In this document: positions 1 through 10,335 of the stretch, one piece after another
How the letters are laid out: the number at the start of each line of letters is the position of its first letter
How positions within the stretch are numbered: the stretch's first letter is position 1
NCBI GenBank assembly: GCA_024638445.1
Contig: JAHEKH010000089.1
Span: 1-10,711 of the forward strand
Length of the DNA: 10,711 bases
DNA from: Gammaproteobacteria bacterium
GTDB taxonomy: Bacteria; Pseudomonadota; Gammaproteobacteria; Steroidobacterales; JABDKV01
Direction: 5' to 3'
Notes under the pieces: model-generated
Told to the model about the DNA's origin: nothing
The model's database searches: none
The model's input: only the letters and a program-made list of their open reading frames with translations
Program-made: the position numbers and the translations under genes

Positions 1-1527
1 GATTGCTGCCACTCCGGCACCATGACCCGCGACGTGTTTGGCGACGCGGTGCGCGCCGCGCCCCCGGACAAACGGTCCGTGACAGCGATGGATCTTCCGG
101 AAACCCCCGCCGATACGCGCGATATCGATTCCGAAAAACTCAGCGAGGCCGGCTGGCTGGAAATCAGCGATTCCTACGTGGTGGTCTCCGGCTGCCGCGA
201 CAACGAGCTGTCGCATGAATTTCCCAAGCAGGATCCGGACAACCGAAACGGCGCGCTGACTCACTTCTTTACCGAAGCCCTGACGCGCGCAACACCCGGT
301 ACCACCTATCGCGACGCCTTCGAATATGCCCGCGGCAGGATCAATGCGAAATGGTCCGACCAGAACCCCCAGATCGACGGCAAGCTGGATCGCGAAATTT
401 TCGGCGTGAAAGACATCGAGCCGATTCGCTATGTCGCAGTGAAATCGGTCGACGGCGACAAAGTCGTGCTCAACGGCGGCAAGGCGCATGGCCTGTATCC
501 CAACTCACAGTGGACCGTCTATCCGCCCGGCACCAAGAGCACCGACGGCGTCGACAGCCTGGCCGTGCTGGAAATCGAAAAAGTCGGGGCCCTGACCTCG
601 AGCGCCGTGGTGCGCGAAACGCATGGCGAGGTCGTGCCGATGTCGCGCTGCGTGGAGACCGCCACGGCGGCCGAAAAATTCCAGCTGGGCATCGACCTCT
701 CCGCACTGCCTGAAGCCCAGCGCACAGCGCTGGCCGGCGGGATCGAGGAATCGAAACTACTGACCAGCGATGCCGTGGACAACGCGCTCCGGGTCTACGT
801 GCTCGAACCCCGCAGCTCGGCCGGTCCCGATGACCCTGTTCCCCAGGTTGAAAAAGTCGATACCCCGACCTTCGCCGTCGTTGACAACGGCGGGCAGCTG
901 ACCATGCCGCTGCACCCGGTGGCCGAGGACGGCATCGCCAAAACGCTGGTCAGCAACTTCGAAACAATCGCCCGCTACCGCAATGCGCTGGCGCTCGACA
1001 ACGCGGACAGCAAGCTCGATGTTGAGTTCAACCTGTACCGCGAGGTCGATGGCAAGTGGGAGCTGGCCAACGGCGGCAACAGCGTTTTCACCGAGGGTGA
1101 GCGGCTGTCTATCGAGGTCATCAACAACGAGAGCAAGCCGATCCATTTCTGCATTCTCGATTTCGAGCTGACCCGGGCAATTTCAGGGTTTTATCCACAG
1201 AGCCTCACCAGCGAGATGCTGGCGGCCGGCAAGAAGCTGGAGCTCGGCCGGGAGGAAAACGTTACTGCCTACATGAATCCGAAAGAGGAATACCCCGAGG
1301 ACCGGGGCGTAGAAACACTCAAGATCTTCGTTACTACCGACGAGTCCGATTTCCGCTGGCTCCAGCAGGGTGCCACCCGCGATGTCGGCCTCAGCGCACT
1401 GCAGAAAGAGTTCATGGCCGCCTATGGCGGTCCGGCGACCCGCGCGGTGAAGATCGAGAAGAAAAAAGCCTCTGATGACTGGAAGTCAATCAACCGTTCG
1501 TTCCATATCAAGAGACGTTTAGTCTGA
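1..1527 (+). CDS. Caspase-like peptidase (C14 / metacaspase-type catalytic domain), 5'-truncated by the window edge, with a ~490-aa C-terminal extension of unknown function
   Basis: Frame 1 is open from nt 1 (D-C-C-H-S-G-T-M...), so the ORF listed as 22..1527 continues upstream. DCCHSG at nt 1-18 matches the metacaspase/paracaspase catalytic-Cys signature D[AS]CHSG. The downstream motif VSGCRDNELSHE (about nt 187-219) resembles the metacaspase SGC(Q/K)DDQTS(A/Q)D motif. Stop codon TGA at 1525-1527. The remainder has no recognisable motif. Confidence 0.65.
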   Translation, partial: DCCHSGTMTRDVFGDAVRAAPPDKRSVTAMDLPETPADTRDIDSEKLSEAGWLEISDSYVVVSGCRDNELSHEFPKQDPDNRNGALTHFFTEALTRATPGTTYRDAFEYARGRINAKWSDQNPQIDGKLDREIFGVKDIEPIRYVAVKSVDGDKVVLNGGKAHGLYPNSQWTVYPPGTKSTDGVDSLAVLEIEKVGALTSSAVVRETHGEVVPMSRCVETATAAEKFQLGIDLSALPEAQRTALAGGIEESKLLTSDAVDNALRVYVLEPRSSAGPDDPVPQVEKVDTPTFAVVDNGGQLTMPLHPVAEDGIAKTLVSNFETIARYRNALALDNADSKLDVEFNLYREVDGKWELANGGNSVFTEGERLSIEVINNESKPIHFCILDFELTRAISGFYPQSLTSEMLAAGKKLELGREENVTAYMNPKEEYPEDRGVETLKIFVTTDESDFRWLQQGATRDVGLSALQKEFMAAYGGPATRAVKIEKKKASDDWKSINRSFHIKRRLV

Positions 1528-1537
1528 AAGGCCCGTC

Positions 1538-3763
1538 ATGAAGTACCAGGACTTCCGTATTCGTATCGAGTCGAAGACCGATACCGGATTTAACGTGAGT
1601 GTCGAATCCCCGGCTGGCAACGCCGATGAACATATCGTCCTGCCGTTCGATATCGATGAGGCAATGAAACAGTTTCACCAGATGGGGCTGGTTGTGCGTG
1701 GCGCCGCCAGCCGCAAGGTAGAAATCGACGGCCCGGAGCCAATGAAACCCTCCGAGTTCGGCGACCAGCTGTTTCGCGCGTTGTTTACCGGCCGTGTCGG
1801 CAAGATGTACAACGCCATGTGCCGTGATCTGCAGGATCCTGAGATGGGGCTGCGCATAAACCTTCACCTGAACCTGAACGACGCCGGTGTCGGCGCGTTG
1901 GCCGGCGTTCCATGGGAGTTCGTCTACGACGCCGACACAATGGATTATCTGAACCTGAGCCGCCAGACGCCCGTCATTCGTTATCTTGACGTGCAGCGGC
2001 CAAACACGGTCCAGCCGCTAACCGGCAAGCTCAAGGTGCTGGTCGTGATGTCCAGCCCGAAAGGTGAGCACGCCCTGGACCTCGACAAGGAACGCAAGCT
2101 CATCGAGTCGATCTGGTCGGGCGACGATAACGTCGAGCTGACCATCAAGGAAAACCCCACACCGAACAAGCTGCGTTCCTGGCTGACCAACGACAATTAC
2201 CACGTGCTGCACTACATGGGGCACGGCGCCCATGACGACAAGACCGGGGTAGGCGCCCTGGTCCTGGAGGACGATGACGGCAATGCCAACCTGCTCGACG
2301 CTGAAACGCTGGGCACATTCCTGCGTAACGCGCCGACCATCCGCCTGGCGTTCCTCAACGCGTGTGACCTGGCCAAGACCGGTGAAGACACGCCGTTTTC
2401 CGGCGTTGCCAACCGGCTGGTGATGGCCGGTCTGCCGGCGGTCGTAGCGATGCAGTTCCCGATTTCAGACGATGCCGCCATCGCTTTCGCGCGCACCTTT
2501 TATACGCGGCTGGAGAAAGGCCAGCCGGTCGACGAGGCGGTAGCCCATGGCCGGACCGCTATCCTGGCCGACAAGCCGGGCTCCATGGAATGGGGCACGC
2601 CGGTGCTGTACATGCGCACGCCGGACGGCCGTCTCTTCGAGCGCCCGGGCGTTGAACCACCGGCAGCGGACCCGGCCGCGGCGGCGGAAACCGCTCCGGC
2701 CCCGCCAGCGCCTGACGGCTCGGTTTCGGTGCCGAAAAAAGGCATCGGCGCGGCGGCCGGCATCCTGGTGCTGCTGGCAGCCATTGCGGCCGGCGCGTTC
2801 TTCATGCTCGGCGGCAAGAAGGTGCCGCTGGATTTCGAGAGCGAGGAAATCCAGGCCTACATCGATGAACCGGTCGAAGTGAAGTTCATCGCGACCAACA
2901 ACCCGGAAGGCACGGCCCACCTGGACCAGTACAACGTGTCGGTGGCCGCACCCAACGCTACCGGCCTCGAAGTTTCCGACACCGACGAGATCAACGGTTA
3001 CTGGCGCACGATGATTACGCCGCGGGAGACCGGTGATTACGAGATCATTGCCACCCCGGTAGACGTCAACAAGCCTGATGCCGAGCCCCGCAAGAAATCA
3101 GCAAAACTGGTGGTCAGCATCAATCCGGAAGTACAGGCGGCTTACGAGACGGCTATGGCCAGCGTCAGTACCCCGGCTGTGGCCACCGAAGACCTGATAG
3201 AGACATTGACGGGTCTCGAAGCCCGCGGTCTGAGCGCTGAAATGCGGTCGGAAATCGAGAAAACCCGGGCGGCGCTCGAAGAAGTGGTCGCCACGAAGAC
3301 ACTTGCGCGCAGCGGGTTTGCCAGCGACTCGAGCACCCTGGCCGAAAAAATTGCGGCGTACGTAGACTGGAAGACCCAGGTGCAGGCGACCCGCGATTTC
3401 GAACCCACCGCCAGCGCCTACCCGGAGGTCATGCAGGAACTCGAGACCCTGGCCGGGCGCATGGATGTCGCCGGGATGACGCTGTGCACGAAGGCACCGC
3501 CGTGCAGCGATGTATCGCGCGTGGCTTCGGGTGGCCGGGTCTACACGGTAATCGAGTACACACCGGCCGAAAAGGGCTCGAAGGTTGCGGTGCTGTATCA
3601 CGCGATGCCGGACAACGAGGTCAGGAAGACCCGCCAGATGACCCTGGCCGGCAATACCACTCACGCCGACTGGTCGACCGCGCCCGCGCGTGGCAGCTAC
3701 GAGGTGAGACTGTACAACGATGCCGGCGACCTGCTGGTCTCGAAGCCCCTCGAAATCTACTGA
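1538..3763 (+). CDS. CHAT-domain (caspase HetF-associated) protease-like protein with a single predicted transmembrane helix and a ~320-aa C-terminal domain
   Basis: ATG at 1538 lies 10 nt after the upstream stop and is preceded by AAAGG. The CHAT His motif LHYMGHG has its His codon at 2222-2224. The Cys motif LAFLNACDLAK has its Cys codon at 2363-2365. A Pro/Ala-rich linker (PPAADPAAAAETAPAPPAP) is followed by KKGIGAAAGILVLLAAIAAGAFFMLGGKK, a hydrophobic helix flanked by Lys on both sides at about nt 2741-2815. The C-terminal ~320 aa has alternating beta-like and helical stretches with no known motif. Confidence 0.7.
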   Translation: MKYQDFRIRIESKTDTGFNVSVESPAGNADEHIVLPFDIDEAMKQFHQMGLVVRGAASRKVEIDGPEPMKPSEFGDQLFRALFTGRVGKMYNAMCRDLQDPEMGLRINLHLNLNDAGVGALAGVPWEFVYDADTMDYLNLSRQTPVIRYLDVQRPNTVQPLTGKLKVLVVMSSPKGEHALDLDKERKLIESIWSGDDNVELTIKENPTPNKLRSWLTNDNYHVLHYMGHGAHDDKTGVGALVLEDDDGNANLLDAETLGTFLRNAPTIRLAFLNACDLAKTGEDTPFSGVANRLVMAGLPAVVAMQFPISDDAAIAFARTFYTRLEKGQPVDEAVAHGRTAILADKPGSMEWGTPVLYMRTPDGRLFERPGVEPPAADPAAAAETAPAPPAPDGSVSVPKKGIGAAAGILVLLAAIAAGAFFMLGGKKVPLDFESEEIQAYIDEPVEVKFIATNNPEGTAHLDQYNVSVAAPNATGLEVSDTDEINGYWRTMITPRETGDYEIIATPVDVNKPDAEPRKKSAKLVVSINPEVQAAYETAMASVSTPAVATEDLIETLTGLEARGLSAEMRSEIEKTRAALEEVVATKTLARSGFASDSSTLAEKIAAYVDWKTQVQATRDFEPTASAYPEVMQELETLAGRMDVAGMTLCTKAPPCSDVSRVASGGRVYTVIEYTPAEKGSKVAVLYHAMPDNEVRKTRQMTLAGNTTHADWSTAPARGSYEVRLYNDAGDLLVSKPLEIY

Positions 3764-3772
3764 AAAAACGGG

Positions 3773-3794
3773 GCCCGGCGATCGGTCGCCGGGC
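3773..3794. terminator. GC-rich hairpin (gcccggcga-tcgg-tcgccgggc) directly after the CHAT gene stop
   Basis: 9-bp perfect stem with a 4-nt loop. An A6 tract lies upstream and there is no T tract downstream on the + strand. A second hairpin ccgggc-gcaaa-gcccgg follows at about 3808-3824. The geometry would be a classic terminator only for the minus strand. Confidence 0.3.
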
Positions 3795-3913
3795 TCCGGC
3801 AAATCAACCGGGCGCAAAGCCCGGGCGGACCCGCGCCGCGTGCCGGGTGCCGGGTAGTAAACTAGCCAGTGCGTTTCCATTCGACGCAATAACCGGACGA
3901 CAGGACGACAGCC

Positions 3914-4387
3914 ATGCCCCGATCGATCGTTTATTCGACGCCCACTGTTGCAATGCCCGGCGACACCCGCGGCGTGCCCAGCGGCGACTACAAGGCGCCC
4001 CCGCAGGCGCCTCCGCCGGACGACTACGCCGACAAGCTCGTCAAGCTGATCCCGGTCGAAGTCATCGGCGTTTATGTCTCGATGCAGGCCATTCTCGAAG
4101 GCGCAAAGCTGGTGCATCCGCCGGTGCCCTGGCTGGTCTACGGTTTCGGAATCTTCGCCACCTGGTTTTTCCTGCGGTTCTCGCTGAAAGTCAGCGACCG
4201 CTGGCACCTGCTCCTGGCCATGCTGGCCTTCGCGATCTGGGCGTTCAGCCTGGGCGGACCGTTCGAGCAGTTCCAGTGGTACGTCGACGCCGGCAGCACC
4301 TATGCGGGCCTGCTCGTGGCCGGCTACACGTTTATAGCGCCCTTGTTGTTGCCGGAAATCTCCTTCGAGGATGAAAAGAAGCCCTGA
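3914..4387 (+). CDS. Small integral membrane protein (3 predicted TM helices), hypothetical
   Basis: 157-aa ORF with AGGA 10 nt upstream. Three hydrophobic segments: WLVYGFGIFATWFFLRF, WHLLLAMLAFAIWAFSLGG and YAGLLVAGYTFIAPLLL. Its 3' end overlaps the next ORF by 17 nt, which suggests translational coupling. Confidence 0.5.
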   Translation: MPRSIVYSTPTVAMPGDTRGVPSGDYKAPPQAPPPDDYADKLVKLIPVEVIGVYVSMQAILEGAKLVHPPVPWLVYGFGIFATWFFLRFSLKVSDRWHLLLAMLAFAIWAFSLGGPFEQFQWYVDAGSTYAGLLVAGYTFIAPLLLPEISFEDEKKP

Positions 4388-4868
4388 CGCCATGGACCCT
4401 CGCCTGATGCTTGCCCTGGTCGTTCTGGCCCTGCCGGTGTCCGGTGTTTGTGGAGACAACGAGGAGCTCCTGACCGAACCGGTCCAGGTCGAGCCGGTGG
4501 TGGCGCCACCGCGCCCGGTCGTCTTTGCGCGGCGAATCACTGAACACGAGAAGACCTGCCAGCATGAGGCGCTTCCTTACCTGGGAATGACGCTGTCGAT
4601 CAGCCCGCAGGGTCATGTGGTCGGCGTGACCCACCGCGTGGTGGGAGACTTCGGCGCAAAGCGCATCGAAGCCATCATTGCCGACGTCCTGACGTATCGA
4701 TTCAAACCCTTCCTGGTCGACGGCCGGCTGTTGGCGCTGAGCCTGCCGCACCACGTCGTCATTGCCGACAACGAGGTCGTTCACTGTTACGAGGCGCCGC
4801 TGTTCCGCGAGCGCCGGATCGATCACCTGGATCTGGGGGAGTTTCCCGCCGGGACCGACGGGCAATAG
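4371..4868 (+). CDS. Secreted/periplasmic protein with a TonB-C-terminal-like domain (weak motif match); the start may instead be ATG 4392
   Basis: N-terminal signal-like segment (R/K then LMLALVVLALPVSGVCG). The C-terminal stretch GHVVGVTHRVVGDFGAKRIEAIIADVLTYRFKPFLVDGR resembles the TonB_C pattern G.V.V...s.G...LD.AA..Av..w.F.P. Overlaps the upstream gene by 17 nt if it starts at 4371. Confidence 0.45.
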   Translation: MKRSPDAMDPRLMLALVVLALPVSGVCGDNEELLTEPVQVEPVVAPPRPVVFARRITEHEKTCQHEALPYLGMTLSISPQGHVVGVTHRVVGDFGAKRIEAIIADVLTYRFKPFLVDGRLLALSLPHHVVIADNEVVHCYEAPLFRERRIDHLDLGEFPAGTDGQ

Positions 4869-4947: not shown

Positions 4948-6099
4948 TCAGGCGTCACCGTTGACGTTGATCTTGACGGTGTCCTGCAGCACGCCGTCCA
5001 GACCGCCGAAGACGGTCAGCTTGTCCACCTTCTCTGTCACCTTCTCGAGCGTCTCCAGCTCCTTCAGGCGCAGCAGTGCGGGGTGCTCACTCATCAGGCG
5101 GGCGGTGTTCAGCAGCGCACGGGTCGCTGCCGTCTCCTCACGGCGCTTGATGACGTTCGCCTGCGCGGCCTTCTCGGCCTCGACCACCTGGTTCAGAATT
5201 TCCTTCATGTCACCAGGCAGGATGACGTCCTTGACGCCGACGTTAGTCACCTCGATACCGTGTTCGCCCACCGCGGGCGCAACCGCCTCGTAGATCACGC
5301 GATCCAGCTCACCCTTGTTCGCCAGCAGCGTGTCCAGGGTGCGGGTACCGATGGCAGTACGCAGGGCGAACTGCAGCTCGCGGTACAGCTGGCCGGTGAC
5401 GTCCACCAGGTCCTTGTGGGCCTTCACCGGGTCGGCGATCTTGTAGGCAGCGGTCAGGTTCACGCGCAGCGTGACCTTGTCCTTCGTCAGGATTTCCTGG
5501 CCGCCCACGTCCATCGCCTGCAGGCGCAGGTCGACATGCGCGATCTTGATGTTGCGGTTGAACTTCCAGTACGCGTGCGTACCCGGCTGCAGTACGGTCT
5601 TGAACTCACCGTCCACGGTCAGCAGGCCGACGTGCTGGTCGGCCACCTCGGTGGCGACGATAAAGTTCGCAACCTGCACCAGGTCACGCGGGCGCGCACG
5701 GCCCAGGACGGCCGCCTTGCCACGGGGAATCTCGAACTCCTTTTCGATGTTCACCGTCTCGACGGCAATCTCCACCGGGCCCTTCCAGTACAGCTGGCGG
5801 GTGCCCGGGGCCAGGACCGTGTGCATCTTGCCGTTCTTGTAGACGAAGGCCACCTCGTAGTCGCCCAGGTCCACAATCTGGAAGTGCTGCTTGCACAGCT
5901 CGTGCTCGTCATCGATCAGGAAGTCGACGATACAGTGCTCGAACTCGGGCACCGTCAGGTCGTTGACCTCGACCGCGACACGCTTGAACGGTGCAATGAC
6001 CCAGCGGACGCCAGGGCGCAGGATCTGCGTGAACATGCCGTTCACGAAGACCAGGCCACGCTCGTGCTGGGCAATTACCTTGCGTGTAATACCAAACAT
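4948..6099 (-). CDS. SPFH / band-7 (stomatin-prohibitin-flotillin-HflK/C) family protein with an extra ~150-aa N-terminal region
   Basis: The C-terminal 230 aa carries the typical band-7 pattern (QEILTKDKVTLRVNLTAAYKI...GIEVTNVGVKDVILPGDMKEILNQVVEAEKAAQANVIKRREETA...) followed by a coiled-coil tail. I place the start at ATG 6099-6097 (MFGITRKV) because GAGGAGAGA lies 5-13 nt upstream. The longer ORF to 6162 has no RBS. Confidence 0.75.
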   Translation of the reverse strand: MFGITRKVIAQHERGLVFVNGMFTQILRPGVRWVIAPFKRVAVEVNDLTVPEFEHCIVDFLIDDEHELCKQHFQIVDLGDYEVAFVYKNGKMHTVLAPGTRQLYWKGPVEIAVETVNIEKEFEIPRGKAAVLGRARPRDLVQVANFIVATEVADQHVGLLTVDGEFKTVLQPGTHAYWKFNRNIKIAHVDLRLQAMDVGGQEILTKDKVTLRVNLTAAYKIADPVKAHKDLVDVTGQLYRELQFALRTAIGTRTLDTLLANKGELDRVIYEAVAPAVGEHGIEVTNVGVKDVILPGDMKEILNQVVEAEKAAQANVIKRREETAATRALLNTARLMSEHPALLRLKELETLEKVTEKVDKLTVFGGLDGVLQDTVKINVNGDA

Positions 6100-6313
6100 G
6101 GTGTCTCTCCTCTTGTTTTGGTTGGATGAAATGCGGCTGATAGCTGCGACCGGCCGCCGCAAAAAACCGGTCGGTCAATGCCCGTGGATCACCTCCTTTG
6201 CTTGCAGAAAATTTGGGCGCTGCAACCCAGGAACCCGTGTCGCGGCTTCGCCGCAGGTTCGCCTTACGTCAGTGCCCCGTGTGGAGCGGCTTCAGCCGCG
6301 CTTCTTTGGGTCT

Positions 6314-6672: not shown

Positions 6673-6745
6673 GTGGAAAAGGAGGATTCGAACCTCCGAC
6701 CCACGACGTTCAGGTCGTTGCTCTACCCATCTGAGCTATATTCCC
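6673..6745 (-). tRNA. Degenerate tRNA-like gene or pseudo-tRNA (anticodon region GAA, Phe-like) at the distal end of the array
   Basis: On the minus strand: GGGAATA TA GCTC AGATGGGTA GAGC A ACGAC CTGAAC GTCGT GGGTC GGAGG TTCGAAT CCTCC TTTTCCA C. The D-arm and T-arm are good. The anticodon loop is only 6 nt. There are two acceptor mismatches (G1:A72, T6:T67) and no encoded CCA. Confidence 0.4.
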
Positions 6746-6897
6746 GATTGGCGCTCTTCGCCGGACGCTCGCTCGGTATACGCCGTGCAACACACGCGTT
6801 GGCGCACCGGACCGGGTTCTCAGAACCGGAACCGCTGAACGATTGCCGTAGCAGAAAGAACTCTGTGTGGCCCGCCGCAGGAATCGGCACGCCGAAT

Positions 6898-6978
6898 TGG
6901 TAGCCGCCCCCGGATTCGAACCGGGAATCACCCGGGTCTGAGCCGGGCAGGTATACCCGAGGTTCCCTTCAGGCGGCC
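6898..6978 (-). tRNA. Aberrant tRNA-like gene, 81 nt, anticodon loop CUCAGAC (CAG, Leu-reading) but no long variable arm and a non-standard D-region
   Basis: Acceptor GGCCGCC / GGCGGCT (7 bp, one G:U), discriminator A, CCA encoded. T-arm CCCGG TTCGAAT CCGGG. Anticodon arm CCCGG CTCAGAC CCGGG. Between the acceptor and the anticodon stem lie 24 nt (TGAAGGGAACCTCGGGTATACCTG) that do not fold as a canonical D-arm. Confidence 0.45.
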
Positions 6979-6990
6979 AAAGAAATTAAC

Positions 6991-7066
6991 TGGATCACCG
7001 CCGAGGACTCGAACCCCGACCCCGGGGTTCAGGGCCCCGTGTCCTGCCCGGTTAGACGAGCGGTGA
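6991..7066 (-). tRNA. tRNA-Gln (anticodon CUG), 76 nt, CCA encoded, C33 instead of U33
   Basis: TCACCGC TC GTCT AACCGGGCA GGAC A CGGGG CCCTGAA CCCCG GGGT CGGGG TTCGAGT CCTCG GCGGTGA T CCA. All four stems pair. The anticodon loop CCCTGAA gives CUG at positions 34-36 but lacks the universal U33. Confidence 0.65.
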
Positions 7067-7071
7067 CTATC

Positions 7072-7146
7072 TGGAGCGGCCCGGGGGACTTGAACCCCCA
7101 CCCTCAACCTTCGCACGGTTGTGCTCTGCCCTTGAGCTTGAGCCGC
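7072..7146 (-). tRNA. tRNA-Arg (anticodon GCG), 75 nt, CCA encoded
   Basis: GCGGCTC AA GCTC AAGGGCA GAGC A CAACC GTGCGAA GGTTG AGGGT GGGGG TTCAAGT CCCCC GGGCCGC T CCA. Clean cloverleaf. Position 32 is G, which is unusual. Anticodon GCG rather than the ACG usual in bacteria. Confidence 0.65.
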
Positions 7147-7151
7147 ATGAG

Positions 7152-7229
7152 TGGTTGCCCGCGGTGGAATCGAACCACTGTGCGTTCCGCCTTGTAAGGG
7201 CGGTGTCCGGCCACCGGACCACGCGGGCT
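7152..7229 (-). tRNA. tRNA-Val (anticodon UAC)-like, 78 nt, CCA encoded, irregular
   Basis: AGCCCGC GTG GTCC GGTGGCC GGAC A CCGCC CTTACAA GGCGG AACGCAC AGTGG TTCGATT CCACC GCGGGCA A CCA. Irregularities: A1:A72 mismatch, 3 nt between the acceptor and D-stem, a 7-nt variable loop and an A49:C65 mismatch. Confidence 0.55.
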
Positions 7230-7277: not shown

Positions 7278-8765
7278 ATGAACAACGAACACGACCTCGA
7301 GCTGATCCTCAATTCCCAGGTGCCCCTGATCGTGGTGGAAACCCACGACGAACCACCGATGCTCGAGCTGCTCAAGCGCGTTTCGCTGAGCCGCAACGCC
7401 GCCGACTACCAGCCGGTTTTCCGCTGGACGATTACCGACGGGCTGCAACGCATGGAGCTGGCGCTGCAGGACGACACCGAGGAACTCGACCCCGAGCAGG
7501 TGTTGCGGCATATCCGCAGGACCCAGCAGACCGGCATCTACGTGCTGCTGGATTTCCACCCGTACCTGAAAGACCCGGTCAATATCCGGTTGCTGAAAGA
7601 CATCTGCATCGATTTTCCGCAGGCGAAGCGTCATGTGGTTTTGCTGAGTCACCAGCTGGAGCTGCCGCCTGAACTGGAGGCCTTTGGCGCGCGTTTCCAT
7701 ATCGCCCTGCCCAACGAGCGGCAGCGCAACGAGATCATTCGCGAAGTCGCCTCCGAATGGCGCGAGGCCAAAGGCAAGACCGTGTCGGCCGATCCCCGCG
7801 CGCTGGAGCTGCTGGTCACGAACCTCGCCGGCCTGACCGAATCCGATACCCGCCGGCTGGCGCGTAACGCCATTTTCAATGACGGCGCAATTACCCGCAG
7901 TGATCTCGAAGGCGTGATGGCGGCCAAGTACGAGCTACTCAACCGCGGCGGCGTGCTCGGCTTTGAATACGAAACCCACCGGTTCTCCGACGTGGCCGGG
8001 CTGAGCCGGCTGAAGGCCTGGCTGGAGCAACGCAAGCCGGCTTTTCTCGGCGAGGCGCAGGCCGCCGGGCTGGACGTGCCTCGCGGGGTGCTGCTGATCG
8101 GCGTGCAGGGCTGCGGCAAAAGCCTGACCGCGAAAGCAACTGCCGGTGTTTACGGCGTGCCGCTGCTGCGGCTGGACTTCGGCACGCTGTACAACAAGTA
8201 TCACGGCGAGAGCGAGCGCAACCTGCGCGAGTCCCTGAAAACCGCTGAAGTAATGGCGCCGTGCGTGCTGTGGATCGACGAGATCGAAAAGGGGTTGTCG
8301 ACCGGGCACGATTCCACCGGCACGACCCGGCGGGTGCTGGGCACTTTCCTGACCTGGCTGGCGGAAAAAAACTCGCCGGTGTTTGTCGTCGCGACCGCCA
8401 ACGACATCTCGGCGCTGCCACCCGAACTGGTGCGCAAGGGCCGTTTCGACGAGCTGTTCTTCGTCGATCTTCCCGATTCGGATGTCCGTATGGCCATTTT
8501 CGAGGTGCACCTGCGTTTTCGAGGGCACGACCCGGCGGCGTTCGACCTCGCAAGGCTCGAGGCTGCGGCGGACGGTTTTTCCGGCGCCGAAATCGAGCAG
8601 GGCATCGTATCCGCGCTCTATGCCGCGCATGCCAAGCGCGAACCTTTATCGACCGCACACATCCTGCGCGAACTGGAACGGACCCAGCCGTTATCGGTCG
8701 TTATGGCCGAGACCGTGCACGCACTGCGAAGCTGGGCCGACGGCCGTACGGTGCCGGGACACTGA
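7278..8765 (+). CDS. Classical-clade AAA+ ATPase (FtsH/Cdc48/Vps4-type module) with a ~270-aa N-terminal domain of unknown function
   Basis: Walker [14 protein letters not shown], Walker [11 protein letters not shown] and the second region of homology [29 protein letters not shown], followed by a helical lid. Start placed at ATG 7278, the first ATG clear of the tRNA genes. No clear SD (only 48 nt after tRNA-Val). The longer ORF from 7119 would overlap two tRNA genes. Confidence 0.75.
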
Positions 8766-8797
8766 GTCGCATCGCGGCCGGGCAGAACCTCCCTGCC

Positions 8798-8872
8798 TGG
8801 TGCGGACAGCGGGAGCTGAACCCGCGGCTCTGCACCGGCAACGCATTGCTCTCCCCTTAAGCGGACATCCGC
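8798..8872 (-). tRNA. tRNA-Gly (anticodon GCC)-like, 75 nt, CCA encoded, non-canonical
   Basis: GCGGATG TCC GCTT AAGGGGA GAGC A ATGCG TTGCCGG TGCAG AGCC GCGGG TTCAGCT CCCGC TGTCCGC A CCA. The acceptor and T-stem pair. The T-loop TTCAGCT is atypical. The anticodon stem is weak (A27:G43), and there is an extra nt at positions 8-9. Confidence 0.5.
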
Positions 8873-8881
8873 AGGTCTTGT

Positions 8882-8956
8882 TGGTGGACCGTGAAGGACT
8901 TCAACCCTCATCTCGCCGGGTAAGAACCGGGTGCTCTGGCATTGAGCTAACGATCC
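8882..8956 (-). tRNA. tRNA-Lys (anticodon CUU), 75 nt, CCA encoded
   Basis: GGATCGT TA GCTC AATGCCA GAGC A CCCGG TTCTTAC CCGGC GAGAT GAGGG TTGAAGT CCTTC ACGGTCC A CCA. The D-loop lacks G18G19. The T-loop has G56 instead of C56. C27:C43 mismatch. Confidence 0.6.
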
Positions 8957-8961
8957 GTATC

Positions 8962-9036
8962 TGGGGTGGCCGGCCGGGTTTGCACCGGCATCGTCCGGGT
9001 TCACGGCCCGGGGCTTTGCCTTTAAGCGACAGCCAC
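8962..9036 (-). tRNA. tRNA-His (anticodon GUG)-like, 75 nt, discriminator C, CCA encoded
   Basis: GTGGCTG TC GCTT AAAGGCA AAGC C CCGGG CCGTGAA CCCGG ACGAT GCCGG TGCAAAC CCGGC CGGCCAC C CCA. C33 replaces U33. T-loop TGCAAAC. There is no encoded G-1: the upstream base is T. Confidence 0.55.
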
Positions 9037-9041
9037 AGAGC

Positions 9042-9116
9042 TGGTCGGGGAAAAAGGAATCGAACCTTCTGTCACGCGGGCCCAAACCGCGAGCTTTGCC
9101 ACTAAGCTATTCCCCG
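9042..9116 (-). tRNA. tRNA-Pro (anticodon UGG), 75 nt, CCA encoded, near-canonical
   Basis: CGGGGAA TA GCTT AGTGGCA AAGC T CGCGG TTTGGGC CCGCG TGACA GAAGG TTCGATT CCTTT TTCCCCG A CCA. C1:G72 and G37 are as expected for Pro. Confidence 0.8.
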
Positions 9117-9123
9117 GGGAAAC

Positions 9124-9197
9124 TGGTTGCGCGAGCCGGAATCGAACCAGCGTCTCGCCCTTATCAGGGGCGTGCTCTTTCATTGAGCTATCGCGCT
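9124..9197 (-). tRNA. tRNA-Ile (anticodon GAU), 74 nt, CCA encoded
   Basis: AGCGCGA TA GCTC AATGAAA GAGC A CGCCC CTGATAA GGGCG AGAC GCTGG TTCGATT CCGGC TCGCGCA A CCA. The anticodon arm is nearly identical to enterobacterial tRNA-Ile(GAU). A1:A72 mismatch. The D-loop lacks GG. Confidence 0.65.
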
Positions 9198-9204
9198 CGA
9201 GATC

Positions 9205-9280
9205 TGGAGAACCGGACGGGACCCGAACCTGCAATCGCCAGGTTGAGAGCCTGGCCGCTTATCGGTTTGCGTACCGGTTC
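9205..9280 (-). tRNA. tRNA-Glu (anticodon CUC)-like, 76 nt, CCA encoded
   Basis: GAACCGG TA CGCA AACCGATA AGCG G CCAGG CTCTCAA CCTGG CGATT GCAGG TTCGGGT CCCGT CCGGTTC T CCA. 3-bp D-stem with no GG in the D-loop. The T-loop has G58. A51:C63 mismatch. Confidence 0.55.
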
Positions 9281-9286
9281 AGTGTT

Positions 9287-9361
9287 TGGCGCCCCGTGCG
9301 AGATTCGAACTCGCGTCTGGCGGATCGACAGTCCGCTGCTTTACGCTCAAGCTAACGAGGC
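9287..9361 (-). tRNA. tRNA-Asp (anticodon GUC), 75 nt, discriminator G, CCA encoded
   Basis: GCCTCGT TA GCTT GAGCGTA AAGC A GCGGA CTGTCGA TCCGC CAGAC GCGAG TTCGAAT CTCGC ACGGGGC G CCA. All stems pair, but the D-loop lacks GG. Confidence 0.7.
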
Positions 9362-9399
9362 GGGTTGATATCAGGCCGTTCTCCGCTCTGCTCGTGTCT

Positions 9400-9417
9400 C
9401 CGGTAAAATGATACCGG
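9400..9417. promoter_or_regulatory. Palindrome ccggta-aaatga-taccgg in the divergent region between the tRNA array (minus) and the transporter gene (plus)
   Basis: Perfect 6-bp arms read directly from the sequence. It sits 46 nt upstream of the EamA start and 39 nt upstream of the first tRNA 5' end. No convincing -35/-10 hexamers could be assigned. Confidence 0.3.
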
Positions 9418-9462
9418 TTTCAATCGCCCGGCCCGGTTCCCCGAACCAGCGGAGTGTTTCCA

Positions 9463-10335
9463 ATGTTCGCCAGAATCGATGCGCGTGTCCTGGTCGTGCT
9501 CGGCGCCGTGTTGTTTTCCACCGGTGGTGCCGCTATCAAGGGCACGACACTCACCGGTTGGCAGGTCGCCGCGTTCCGGTCCGGTGTAGCCTGCATCGCG
9601 CTCCTGGTCATGATTCCGTCGGTGCGCCGAGAGCTGTCCTGGCGGGTGCTGCCGGTGTCGGTCGTGTATGCGACGACGCTGGCGTTGTATGTGCTGGCCA
9701 ATAAGCTCACGACGGCCGCCAACACCATTTTTCTGCAGTCCACGGCGCCACTGTATCTGTTGTTTCTCGGGCCGTTGCTGCTGCGCGAGCATACGCAAAA
9801 ACGCGACTGGTGGTTCATCGTTGCCCTGGCAGGCGGACTGGCGCTGTTTTTTGTGTCGATCGACGCACCAACCGAAACCGCACCGGCACCGCTCGCGGGC
9901 AACCTGCTCGGCGGACTCGCGGGCTTTAGCTGGGCGCTGACACTGCTCGGGCTGCGCTGGCTGGCCATCAGTGCCGGACCCGGATCAGCCGCCGCGGCGG
10001 CCGCAACCGGGAATCTGCTGACCTTCCTCGTTTGTGCTTACTGGGCGTTTCCGGTCGTCGACAGCGCACCGCGCGACTGGCTGTTGATCGCTTACCTGGG
10101 TGTGTTCCAGATCGGGGTTGCGTACGTGCTGGTTACCGCCGCGATGCACCGGGTATCCGCCCTGGAGGCGTCGCTACTGATCCTGATCGAGCCGGTGCTG
10201 AATCCCGTCTGGGCGTGGTTGTTTCTCGATGAGACCCCCGGCCGGCTCGCGCTGCTCGCGGGATCTCTCATCCTGGTGAGTATTACCGTGAGGACGCTGC
10301 AGCAACGCCGGTTGCCGAACTCTGGCGAACCCTGA
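9463..10335 (+). CDS. EamA / DMT-superfamily (drug-metabolite transporter) membrane protein, ~10 TM helices
   Basis: 290 aa and almost entirely hydrophobic, with two EamA-like halves (LANKLTTAANTIFLQSTAPLYLLFLGPLLLRE and LVTAAMHRVSALEASLLILIEPVLNPVWAWLFLDE). GGAG lies 8 nt upstream of ATG 9463. The GTG at 9454 from the ORF track lacks spacing to that SD. Confidence 0.7.
   Translation: MFARIDARVLVVLGAVLFSTGGAAIKGTTLTGWQVAAFRSGVACIALLVMIPSVRRELSWRVLPVSVVYATTLALYVLANKLTTAANTIFLQSTAPLYLLFLGPLLLREHTQKRDWWFIVALAGGLALFFVSIDAPTETAPAPLAGNLLGGLAGFSWALTLLGLRWLAISAGPGSAAAAAATGNLLTFLVCAYWAFPVVDSAPRDWLLIAYLGVFQIGVAYVLVTAAMHRVSALEASLLILIEPVLNPVWAWLFLDETPGRLALLAGSLILVSITVRTLQQRRLPNSGEP

Follow-up and report, generated by a model that had tools for sequence, protein, structure and literature searches.

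Can a bacterium couple recognition outside its membrane to a caspase cascade in its cytoplasm? To our knowledge, the known bacterial caspase-like proteases of immunity and development respond to intracellular triggers (RNA-guided complexes, cyclic nucleotides or TIR products), and HetF is the only CHAT protease with a periplasmic domain that has been studied. A locus that could serve to ask this question lies in a 10,711-nucleotide (nt) stretch of a metagenome-assembled genome (MAG) labelled Gammaproteobacteria (contig JAHEKH010000089.1 of assembly GCA_024638445.1), which we call the window. One of its genes encodes a CHAT protease followed by a single transmembrane (TM) helix and a large C-terminal domain, and a preliminary description of the DNA had suggested that such an arrangement might suit a protease activated by an envelope or periplasmic signal. 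We find this gene in the middle of a compact, conserved system of two proteases and a small membrane protein, the sensor-like part of which very probably lies outside the membrane and evolves quickly. At a rough probability of 0.55, we favor a HetF-type bitopic CHAT protease whose outer domain senses an envelope cue, whereupon the cytoplasmic CHAT domain is switched on and cuts one or more partner proteins. If true, this would be a prokaryotic counterpart of receptor-initiated caspase activation.

Domain organization of the CHAT protein

The gene begins with an ATG that follows the stop codon of the preceding gene after 10 nt, and its product can be divided into the parts listed in Table 1. 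The protease is readily recognized: the Pfam CHAT profile (PF12770) matches amino acids (aa) 119-347 with an E-value (E) of 4.5e-31 and 108.8 bits, against a cut-off of 24, and the two residues of the catalytic dyad, His229 (in HYMGHG) and Cys276 (in LNAC), are invariant in the 29 aligned orthologues. Foldseek, run with the full-length model, found the SAVED-CHAT filament 8tl0 (E 1e-11), separase (7nj0 and 5fc2, E 3e-8), DdvA (E 3e-7) and also MALT1; 8tl0 is the closest solved CHAT relative by sequence as well as by fold, with E 1e-11 in both cases. Profile, dyad and fold alike place the protein in the CHAT family (clan CD, caspase-hemoglobinase fold).

The status of the N-terminal ~110 residues, which had been set apart as an unassigned small domain, is less straightforward. 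Pfam searches with the N-terminal 118 aa alone gave nothing beyond one chance-level match, and in that sense the region is still unassigned. Its model (strands at 2-33 and helices at 39-97, with a low-confidence loop at 54-64) leads into the CHAT core, and its mean identity among orthologues is 47%. Hundreds of proteins with differing, unrelated C-termini align with the query from residue 1 to ~368 at 38-48% identity, and this first part is therefore a constant portion of the CHAT clade and not a free-standing accessory; the distant CHAT-TM proteins P0134, P0141 and P0143 start with the same N-terminal motif.

Between the protease and the membrane helix lies a linker (RLFERPGVEPPAADPAAAAETAPAPPAPDGSVSVPKK), rich in Pro and Ala as first described, whose length and sequence vary among the aligned orthologues. 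The full-length AlphaFold model has an overall predicted local distance difference test score (pLDDT) of 82, leaves aa 373-413 disordered and places a helix at aa 410-423. The confidence in the membrane helix is low (pLDDT 33-57), as is usual for an isolated TM helix.

Membrane helix and topology

The segment proposed to span the membrane (GIGAAAGILVLLAAIAAGAFFMLGG) consists of 25 uncharged residues with KK before and KK after it, and it lies at exactly the nucleotides first given for it. Its 19-residue Kyte-Doolittle maximum of 2.51 is the sole peak above 1.6 in the entire 741-aa protein; on the Hessa scale the best 19-mer sums to -2.2 kcal/mol, a crude, unweighted figure that includes no position weighting. 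All 29 full-length homologues have a hydrophobic segment at the same alignment position, at only 12-56% identity to that of the window. Since a hydropathy peak coincides with positional conservation in all 29 proteins, this is not a chance hydrophobic stretch.

Three features bear on its orientation. First, the mean net charge of the 15-residue N flank is +1.2 and that of the equally long C flank is -2.4, and the N flank is the more positive one in 28 of the 29 orthologues (in the wider family, by 70 against 8). Second, no signal peptide was found ahead of the ~400-aa N-terminal enzyme, and without one an N-terminal enzyme of 400 residues is expected to remain in the cytoplasm. Third, the catalytic cysteine is usually the only one in the N-terminal part, while every orthologue has 2 or 4 cysteines in its C-terminal part, including an invariant pair (C650 and C656); such pairing is what a disulfide-bonded periplasmic domain would be expected to show. 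Flank charge, absent signal peptide and cysteine pattern, taken together, make an N-in/C-out topology very likely, so that, judging by these features, hydropathy and domain context, CHAT is very probably cytoplasmic and the C-terminal domain outside the cytoplasm. The single-pass anchor with a large outer domain, as originally envisaged, is thus well supported, the more so as the folds found in that domain match mostly extracellular proteins (see below). The domain context points the same way: the distal module comes after a TM helix in TIR, nSTAND1 and kinase proteins as well, and PASTA, FGE-sulfatase, SH3b or Big_2 domains occupy this position in paralogous CHAT proteins.

The outer domain

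An AlphaFold2 model of aa 429-741 (313 aa, built with 21 orthologous sequences) is of high confidence, with a pLDDT of 93.6 and a predicted template modeling score (pTM) of 0.80. Strands occupy fragment residues 3-99, five helices residues 102-211 and strands again residues 218-312, so that the helical core with a beta-rich segment on either side, as noticed in the sequence, corresponds to a five-helix bundle between two sandwiches. The region is folded, in contrast to the disordered cytoplasmic tail that would have spoken against an outer domain. Its fold matches are only generic ones (Ig, FN3 and MG-type), mostly from extracellular proteins. In the 29-sequence alignment C650, C656 and N727 are invariant and W489 and R619 nearly so; Cys650 and Cys656 probably form a disulfide loop.

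How widespread is this domain? An exhaustive HMMER profile search with the C-terminal alignment (A2) gave 99 matching clusters among 1.84 billion cluster representatives. The 13 strongest matches are all proteins of ~740-760 aa that match at about residues 420-763; 12 of them had also been found in the first homologue search, and these 12 carry a CHAT domain. A word-indexed homologue search with A2 gave no match, which reflects a limit of that tool, since the exhaustive search gave 99 clusters. The distal sub-module, namely the helical bundle plus the last sandwich, also forms the C-terminal end of other proteins, in each case behind a hydrophobic segment. The domains ahead of it are TIR_2 (P0125, P0135 and P0151), nSTAND1 (P0153, P0174 and P0184), a protein kinase (P0172), EAD11 (P0168) and other CHAT domains.

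Compared with Pfam DUF2914 (PF11141) at an E-value limit of 0.1, the 21 orthologous C-terminal domains gave no direct match. Five relatives (P0133, P0139, P0143, P0153 and P0165), though, match both the A2 profile and DUF2914, the latter at their extreme C-terminal end, and through these intermediates the last sandwich would be distantly, and indirectly, related to DUF2914. What emerges is a rare outer module, a helical bundle plus a seemingly DUF2914-like sandwich, that is common to TM-anchored TIR, nSTAND1, kinase and CHAT proteins.

The outer domain also differs from the protease in its rate of change. Identity between the window protein and its three nearest relatives is 86-91% for CHAT, as against 37-51% for the outer sub-domains, and over 28 homologues the means are 64% and 20-25%, respectively. 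To judge from these comparisons the outer domain is rare and evolves much faster than the protease to which it is joined, a pattern that is receptor-like.

The wider family of membrane-anchored CHAT proteases

A search of 5.8 billion proteins returned ~30 full-length homologues of about 730-760 aa (32-66% identity), from MAGs labelled Gammaproteobacteria, Pseudomonadota or Woeseiaceae. Among the many relatives that share only the CHAT half, the alternative C-termini include PASTA, FGE-sulfatase, SH3b, Big_2, LamG, DUF1080, TPR and polytopic membrane domains. In the close paralogues P0025 and P0027-P0030 (48-55% identical in the CHAT half), a polytopic domain with ~6-8 hydrophobic segments replaces both the TM helix and the outer domain. 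A genome scan with one genome per species (185,579 species) identified 470 loci that encode relatives, and the 80 of these that were examined belong to Gammaproteobacteria, Gemmatimonadota, Chloroflexota, Acidobacteriota and Bacteroidota. Two MAGs were each seen to carry two family members: CAZXCL01 (L012 and L066) and JBCCMA01 (L011 and L019).

CHAT proteases joined to an outer domain by a single-pass anchor thus form a large clade that has received little experimental study. The preliminary description had regarded CHAT proteins as normally soluble, and here it must be corrected: HetF itself consists of CHAT, a TM segment and a periplasmic domain, and 94 of the 120 best homologues of the window protein have a strongly hydrophobic segment downstream of CHAT. 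CHAT proteins being often membrane-anchored, the arrangement of the window protein is not unusual.

A conserved gene cassette

The CHAT-TM gene is the second of three in a conserved order, coming after the gene for a soluble C14 caspase and before that for a small protein with four TM segments (4-TM protein). We counted as cassette loci those with both an outer domain of the window type and a C14 neighbor, 16 in all, and in 16/16 the C14 homologue lies directly upstream of the CHAT gene. They come from MAGs labelled Gammaproteobacteria, Pseudomonadota, Pseudomonadales, Pseudomonadaceae and Woeseiaceae, apart from L006, an unlabelled metagenome contig, and the identity of their CHAT domains to that of the window goes down to 32-34%. 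Two further loci of the genome scan match well past the TM helix (L066 to residue 624, L028 to residue 645) but have no C14 neighbor; the MAG that carries L066 has a full cassette in addition to this second copy.

The window begins within the C14 gene, at its catalytic-Cys motif DCCHSGT. The part that is present shares 54% identity with the C14 protein of L001 and 49% with that of L004 (655 and 656 aa), the genes of which are complete at 8024-9991 and 8002-9972 of their respective loci, and the gene matches the PADLOC "caspase" model with E 3e-25. In full-length C14 orthologues Pfam finds Peptidase_C14 at aa 4-270 (E 8e-28) and DUF4384 at aa 509-592, and hydropathy gave no hydrophobic segment. 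The upstream partner is, by these homologies, a predicted soluble Peptidase_C14 orthocaspase with a DUF4384-containing C-terminal extension. Full-length C14 homologues also occur near CHAT genes with other C-termini: 1.5-1.6 kb upstream in L056, L076 and L085 and, in L031, ~4.6 kb downstream of the CHAT match.

The third gene encodes a protein of 157 aa with hydropathy peaks at 45, 71, 99 and 130, i.e. four hydrophobic segments after an N-terminal tail of ~40 aa. This tail has invariant residues at R3, I5 and R19-G20, followed by D-x-Y-x-D-[KR]-L-x-K-L-I-P, and is otherwise variable. A homologue (150-178 aa, again with four hydrophobic segments) lies directly downstream of CHAT in 11/16 cassette loci. 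The family is a small one, with only ~10 clusters in the 5.8-billion-protein search, and it has no match in Pfam, NCBIfam or PADLOC; a role as substrate or effector of the proteases is possible. The gap between the CHAT and 4-TM genes is 150 nt in the window, compared with 5-50 nt in relatives, and holds two GC-rich hairpins (Table 1), the first of which has an A-run before it and no T-run after it on the + strand. The end of the 157-aa gene overlaps by 17 nt with a 165-aa open reading frame (ORF; 4371-4868, + strand) that has a signal-peptide-like N-terminus; this ORF has no family match and is not conserved at the related cassette loci.

In 8/16 loci the gene preceding C14 encodes a membrane protein with a periplasmic region, containing an "IAVLPF" motif plus TPR, and a variable cytoplasmic head: TIR_2 in L017, L020 and L021, three TM segments in L004, L011, L016 and L018, and a winged helix-turn-helix (wHTH) domain, Trans_reg_C, in L006. 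We considered whether this cluster might be a repeat artefact and rejected the idea, as the similarity extends over 460-550 aa (31-33% identity) and includes the non-TPR "IAVLPF" region. The TPR membrane protein may be a fourth component of the cassette, present in half of the loci; the window starts inside the C14 gene, short of that position.

Table 1. Coordinates of the features discussed; positions refer to the window unless a related locus is named.
Feature	Position (nt)	Strand	Basis or remark
C14 gene, 3' part (508 codons)	1..1527	+	Frame-1 translation runs off the 5' end
CHAT-TM-ectodomain gene	1538..3763	+	741 aa, ATG start
N-terminal region, aa 1-102	1538..1843	+	Three strands and three helices; AlphaFold2
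CHAT caspase-like domain, aa 103-364	1844..2629	+	Pfam PF12770, invariant dyad, Foldseek and sequence matches
Codon of catalytic His229	2222-2224	+	
Codon of catalytic Cys276	2363-2365	+	
Pro/Ala-rich linker, aa 365-401	2630..2740	+	Sequence; pLDDT <50 for aa 373-413
Single TM helix, aa 402-426	2741..2815	+	Hydropathy; KK at both ends; DSSP helix 410-423
First Ig-like beta-sandwich, very probably extracytoplasmic, aa 429-527	2822..3118	+	
Five-helix bundle, aa 530-640	3125..3457	+	AlphaFold2 helices, fragment positions 102-211; R619 nearly invariant
Second beta-sandwich, putative distant relation to DUF2914, aa 645-741	3470..3760	+	AlphaFold2; C650, C656 and N727 invariant
Codon of Cys650	3485-3487	+	
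Codon of Cys656	3503-3505	+	
Two GC-rich hairpins	3773-3794, 3808-3824		In the gap 3764-3913 between the CHAT stop and the 157-aa gene
Small membrane protein, 157 aa, third cassette gene	3914..4387	+	Homology at related loci, hydropathy
AAA+ ATPase gene	7278-8765	+	Between the two tRNA blocks
TPR-neighbor genes, related loci	L017 1498-3744, L020 1506-3740, L021 1303-3558	+	TIR_2 head
TPR-neighbor genes, related loci	L004 5550-7574, L011 1680-3680, L016 1467-3473, L018 1559-3922	-	Three-TM head
TPR-neighbor gene, related locus	L006 3684-4985	-	wHTH head

Proposed mechanism and alternatives

How might such a cassette work? In the mechanism that we propose, the outer domain would bind an envelope or periplasmic ligand, or cluster in response to one, and this would bring the cytoplasmic CHAT domains together and make them active. 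Active CHAT would then cleave the co-encoded C14 caspase, in the way that SAVED-CHAT cleaves and activates PCaspase, and/or the conserved Arg19-Gly20 in the cytoplasmic tail of the 4-TM protein, and a cytoplasmic or membrane response would be the outcome. The CHAT domain of HetF (catalytic Cys C295) likewise cuts after Arg, at Arg117 of PatU3 (PMC9457339). Receptor-type signaling of this kind is plausible; that an envelope cue is the activator, what the substrates are and what the physiological outcome would be are points that we infer.

A number of observations weigh against transmembrane activation, or at least against some of its steps. The outer domain has no recognizable ligand-binding site, its folds being generic, and the evidence for the topology of the window protein, although strong, is indirect. 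The cleavage of either the C14 protein or the R19-G20 site would be conjecture, drawn from analogy with other systems, and the 4-TM protein is absent at 5/16 cassette loci. No complete PADLOC system was found at the cassette, only partial matches to single models (SAVED_CHAT, BovA and caspase). The genes that flank the related loci are ordinary, metabolic and variable, and 2.9 million viral contigs contain no relatives, and hence no link to phages; a role in defense, which the association of the outer module with TIR, nSTAND1 and EAD11 would suggest, thus has no direct support, be it from a full PADLOC match, an island context or viral contigs. Finally, the soluble CHAT domain of HetF restores function on its own, so that an anchor may localize rather than switch (PMC9457339).

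This last point makes anchoring without switching a real alternative, and, while we consider it unlikely, it is the one that deserves the most weight. The TM helix and outer domain would in that case do no more than place a constitutively regulated CHAT protease at some site of the envelope (the septum, peptidoglycan or a periplasmic partner), no signal would cross the membrane, and the role would be one of housekeeping, division or envelope biogenesis. HetF, for which such positioning at the divisome has been proposed, offers a precedent, as it localizes to midcell, interacts with FtsI and becomes cytoplasmic when its TM segment is removed, and its soluble CHAT domain alone complements the mutant (PMC8406250, PMC9457339). 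It also agrees with anchoring that some paralogues have peptidoglycan-binding or cell-wall domains (PASTA, SH3b) at the position of the outer domain, and that metabolic genes of the ordinary sort flank the related loci. However, a tether that holds on to a conserved structure of the envelope would not usually diverge as this outer domain does (37-51% identity, next to 86-91% in the protease), and the same module occurs on TIR, nSTAND1 and EAD11 proteins, which are typical of conflict systems. The tight linkage of the CHAT gene to a second caspase-like protease is likewise not what a mere tether would lead one to expect, and the window protein is in any case not a HetF orthologue (79.6 bits versus a cut-off of 1200). 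Should the outer domain prove to be just a tether, our finding would shrink to another HetF-like membrane protease.

In the opposite direction, activation by an envelope cue can be elaborated into something akin to death-receptor surveillance of the envelope. The fast-diversifying periplasmic domain would recognize, outside the cytoplasm, a component of a phage, a molecule of a competitor or damage to the envelope; the receptor would cluster, CHAT would act on C14, and after a final cut at its invariant Arg19-Gly20 the 4-TM protein would permeabilize or remodel the membrane; the TPR membrane protein, in the half of the loci that have it, may be a co-receptor. We regard so complete a scheme as rather improbable.

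More doubtful still is an autoproteolytic logic, in which CHAT would cut its own Pro/Ala linker, in cis or in trans, so as to release itself or shed the outer domain, the tether serving as a means of latency. A disordered linker of 37 residues does lie between CHAT and the TM helix, and trans cleavage of a flexible, TM-adjacent linker has been proposed for DdvA (PMC11506125), where autoproteolysis is itself unproven. In the orthologues, though, the linker varies freely in sequence and length, no Arg/Lys site in it is conserved, and basic residues occur only close to the membrane, where the positive-inside rule would lead one to expect them.

Least credible of all is that the CHAT domain is periplasmic, as that of DdvA, which does function there (PMC11506125), or that the hydrophobic stretch is buried in a soluble protein: the helix is, to be sure, modeled with low confidence, but without a signal peptide 400 residues would need to be exported N-terminus first, the flank charges favor N-in in all but one of 29 orthologues, the cysteines are paired in the C-terminal part and usually single in the N-terminal one, and a 25-residue uncharged segment that peaks at 2.51 cannot be a buried core strand because it stands between a disordered linker and a separately folded domain.

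Among these possibilities, we continue to prefer the sensing of an envelope cue by the outer domain and the consequent switching on of the cytoplasmic protease.

Other features of the window

The remainder of the window carries eleven tRNA genes on the - strand, in two blocks at 6673-7228 and 8801-9361 (ARAGORN found 9 and Rfam 10, with a union of 11); according to ARAGORN, the one at 6673-6746 has an irregular anticodon loop. The AAA+ ATPase gene between the blocks probably starts at the ATG at 7278, since the listed ORF start at 7119 overlaps tRNA genes. Its product shows a weak, sub-threshold resemblance to the anti-phage IetA/IteA (PADLOC E 6e-22; NCBIfam 68.5 bits against a cut-off of 510). 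A 404-aa SPFH/Band 7 protein is encoded at 4948-6162 on the - strand; its SPFH domain is limited to aa 173-343, so that ~170 aa at the N-terminus form an unassigned extension.

Comparison with known systems

Two comparisons can be settled briefly. Borvo, a single-gene CHAT anti-phage system in PADLOC, has a CHAT domain in common with the window protein (BovA, E 2e-10). As only aa 188-342 (155 residues) match, at positions 513-666 of a 711-position model, the similarity is at the level of the domain, and membership was rejected. A gasdermin-linked protease was likewise rejected: Pfam and PADLOC found no gasdermin in the window proteins scanned, and the neighbor is instead the 157-aa 4-TM protein of an unnamed family.

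Proteins of conflict systems and antigen sensors combine CHAT, TIR, nSTAND or kinase domains with variable sensors, some of them made periplasmic by a TM segment (Kaur et al. 2020, PMC7159879; Dore et al. 2023, bioRxiv 10.1101/2023.09.22.558884). There is a likeness, in that the family has relatives with FGE-sulfatase C-termini, but the outer domain of the window protein is not a C-type lectin/FGS domain, and neither the window nor those related loci that were examined showed MoxR-vWA, STAND or diversity-generating retroelement (DGR) components. We found no mention of a C14/CHAT-TM/4-TM cassette in the text of either paper, and keyword searches of open-access text found no description of the cassette or of the outer module.

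DdvA of Myxococcus (8rot) is a transmembrane anti-sigma factor with a periplasmic TPR-CHAT part and a cytoplasmic zinc anti-sigma domain (ZASD), and it has been proposed to transduce a signal from the envelope (PMC11506125). Like the window protein, which finds it by Foldseek, it is single-pass and has its CHAT domain joined to the TM segment by a long, flexible linker. Its topology is the opposite one, with CHAT in the periplasm rather than N-terminal and on the cytoplasmic side. Pfam found no ZASD, TPR or sigma-factor match in the seven window proteins scanned. With no ZASD, TPR or extracytoplasmic-function (ECF) sigma partner and an N-terminal CHAT domain, the window protein was not assigned to the DdvA type.

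A closer parallel, as regards gene content, is the SAVED-CHAT protein of the type III-B CRISPR-CBASS system of Haliangium (8tl0), in which ligand-induced oligomerization leads to the cleavage and activation of a co-encoded PCaspase (bioRxiv 10.1101/2023.06.23.546230). In both cases a CHAT protease is encoded beside a second caspase of the C14 type. The window protein, however, has no SAVED domain fused to CHAT, and on this ground we rejected membership; the match to the SAVED_CHAT model of PADLOC is confined to the CHAT portion (aa 165-376), and the putative sensor is here a TM helix plus an outer domain. Neither the window nor any related locus examined contained genes for a cyclic-oligonucleotide synthase or for CRISPR.

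The closest parallel in layout is HetF of Anabaena/Nostoc PCC 7120, the founding CHAT protein, which gave the family its name and in which an N-terminal cytoplasmic CHAT domain, equipped with a His-Cys dyad, is followed by one TM segment and, in the periplasm, by TPR (PMC8406250, PMC9457339). The order of the parts is the same in the window protein, but orthology was rejected: the match to the HetF model (NCBIfam NF045509) is of 79.6 bits against the whole-protein cut-off of 1200, and it pairs aa 73-365 with positions 72-382 of 836. The C-terminus of HetF is TPR and that of the window protein is sandwich, helical bundle and sandwich, with no TPR match in Pfam. The host is a Gammaproteobacteria MAG and not a cyanobacterium, and the gene is linked to C14 and 4-TM genes, neither of which is reported for hetF in these two papers (PMC8406250, PMC9457339). 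A membrane-anchored CHAT protease as such was thus already known; what is new is the outer domain, the cassette with its second caspase, and the fact that the nearest solved CHAT domain is that of SAVED-CHAT, itself the activator of a second caspase. A conserved two-protease cassette with a fast-evolving, very probably periplasmic module is a testable lead.

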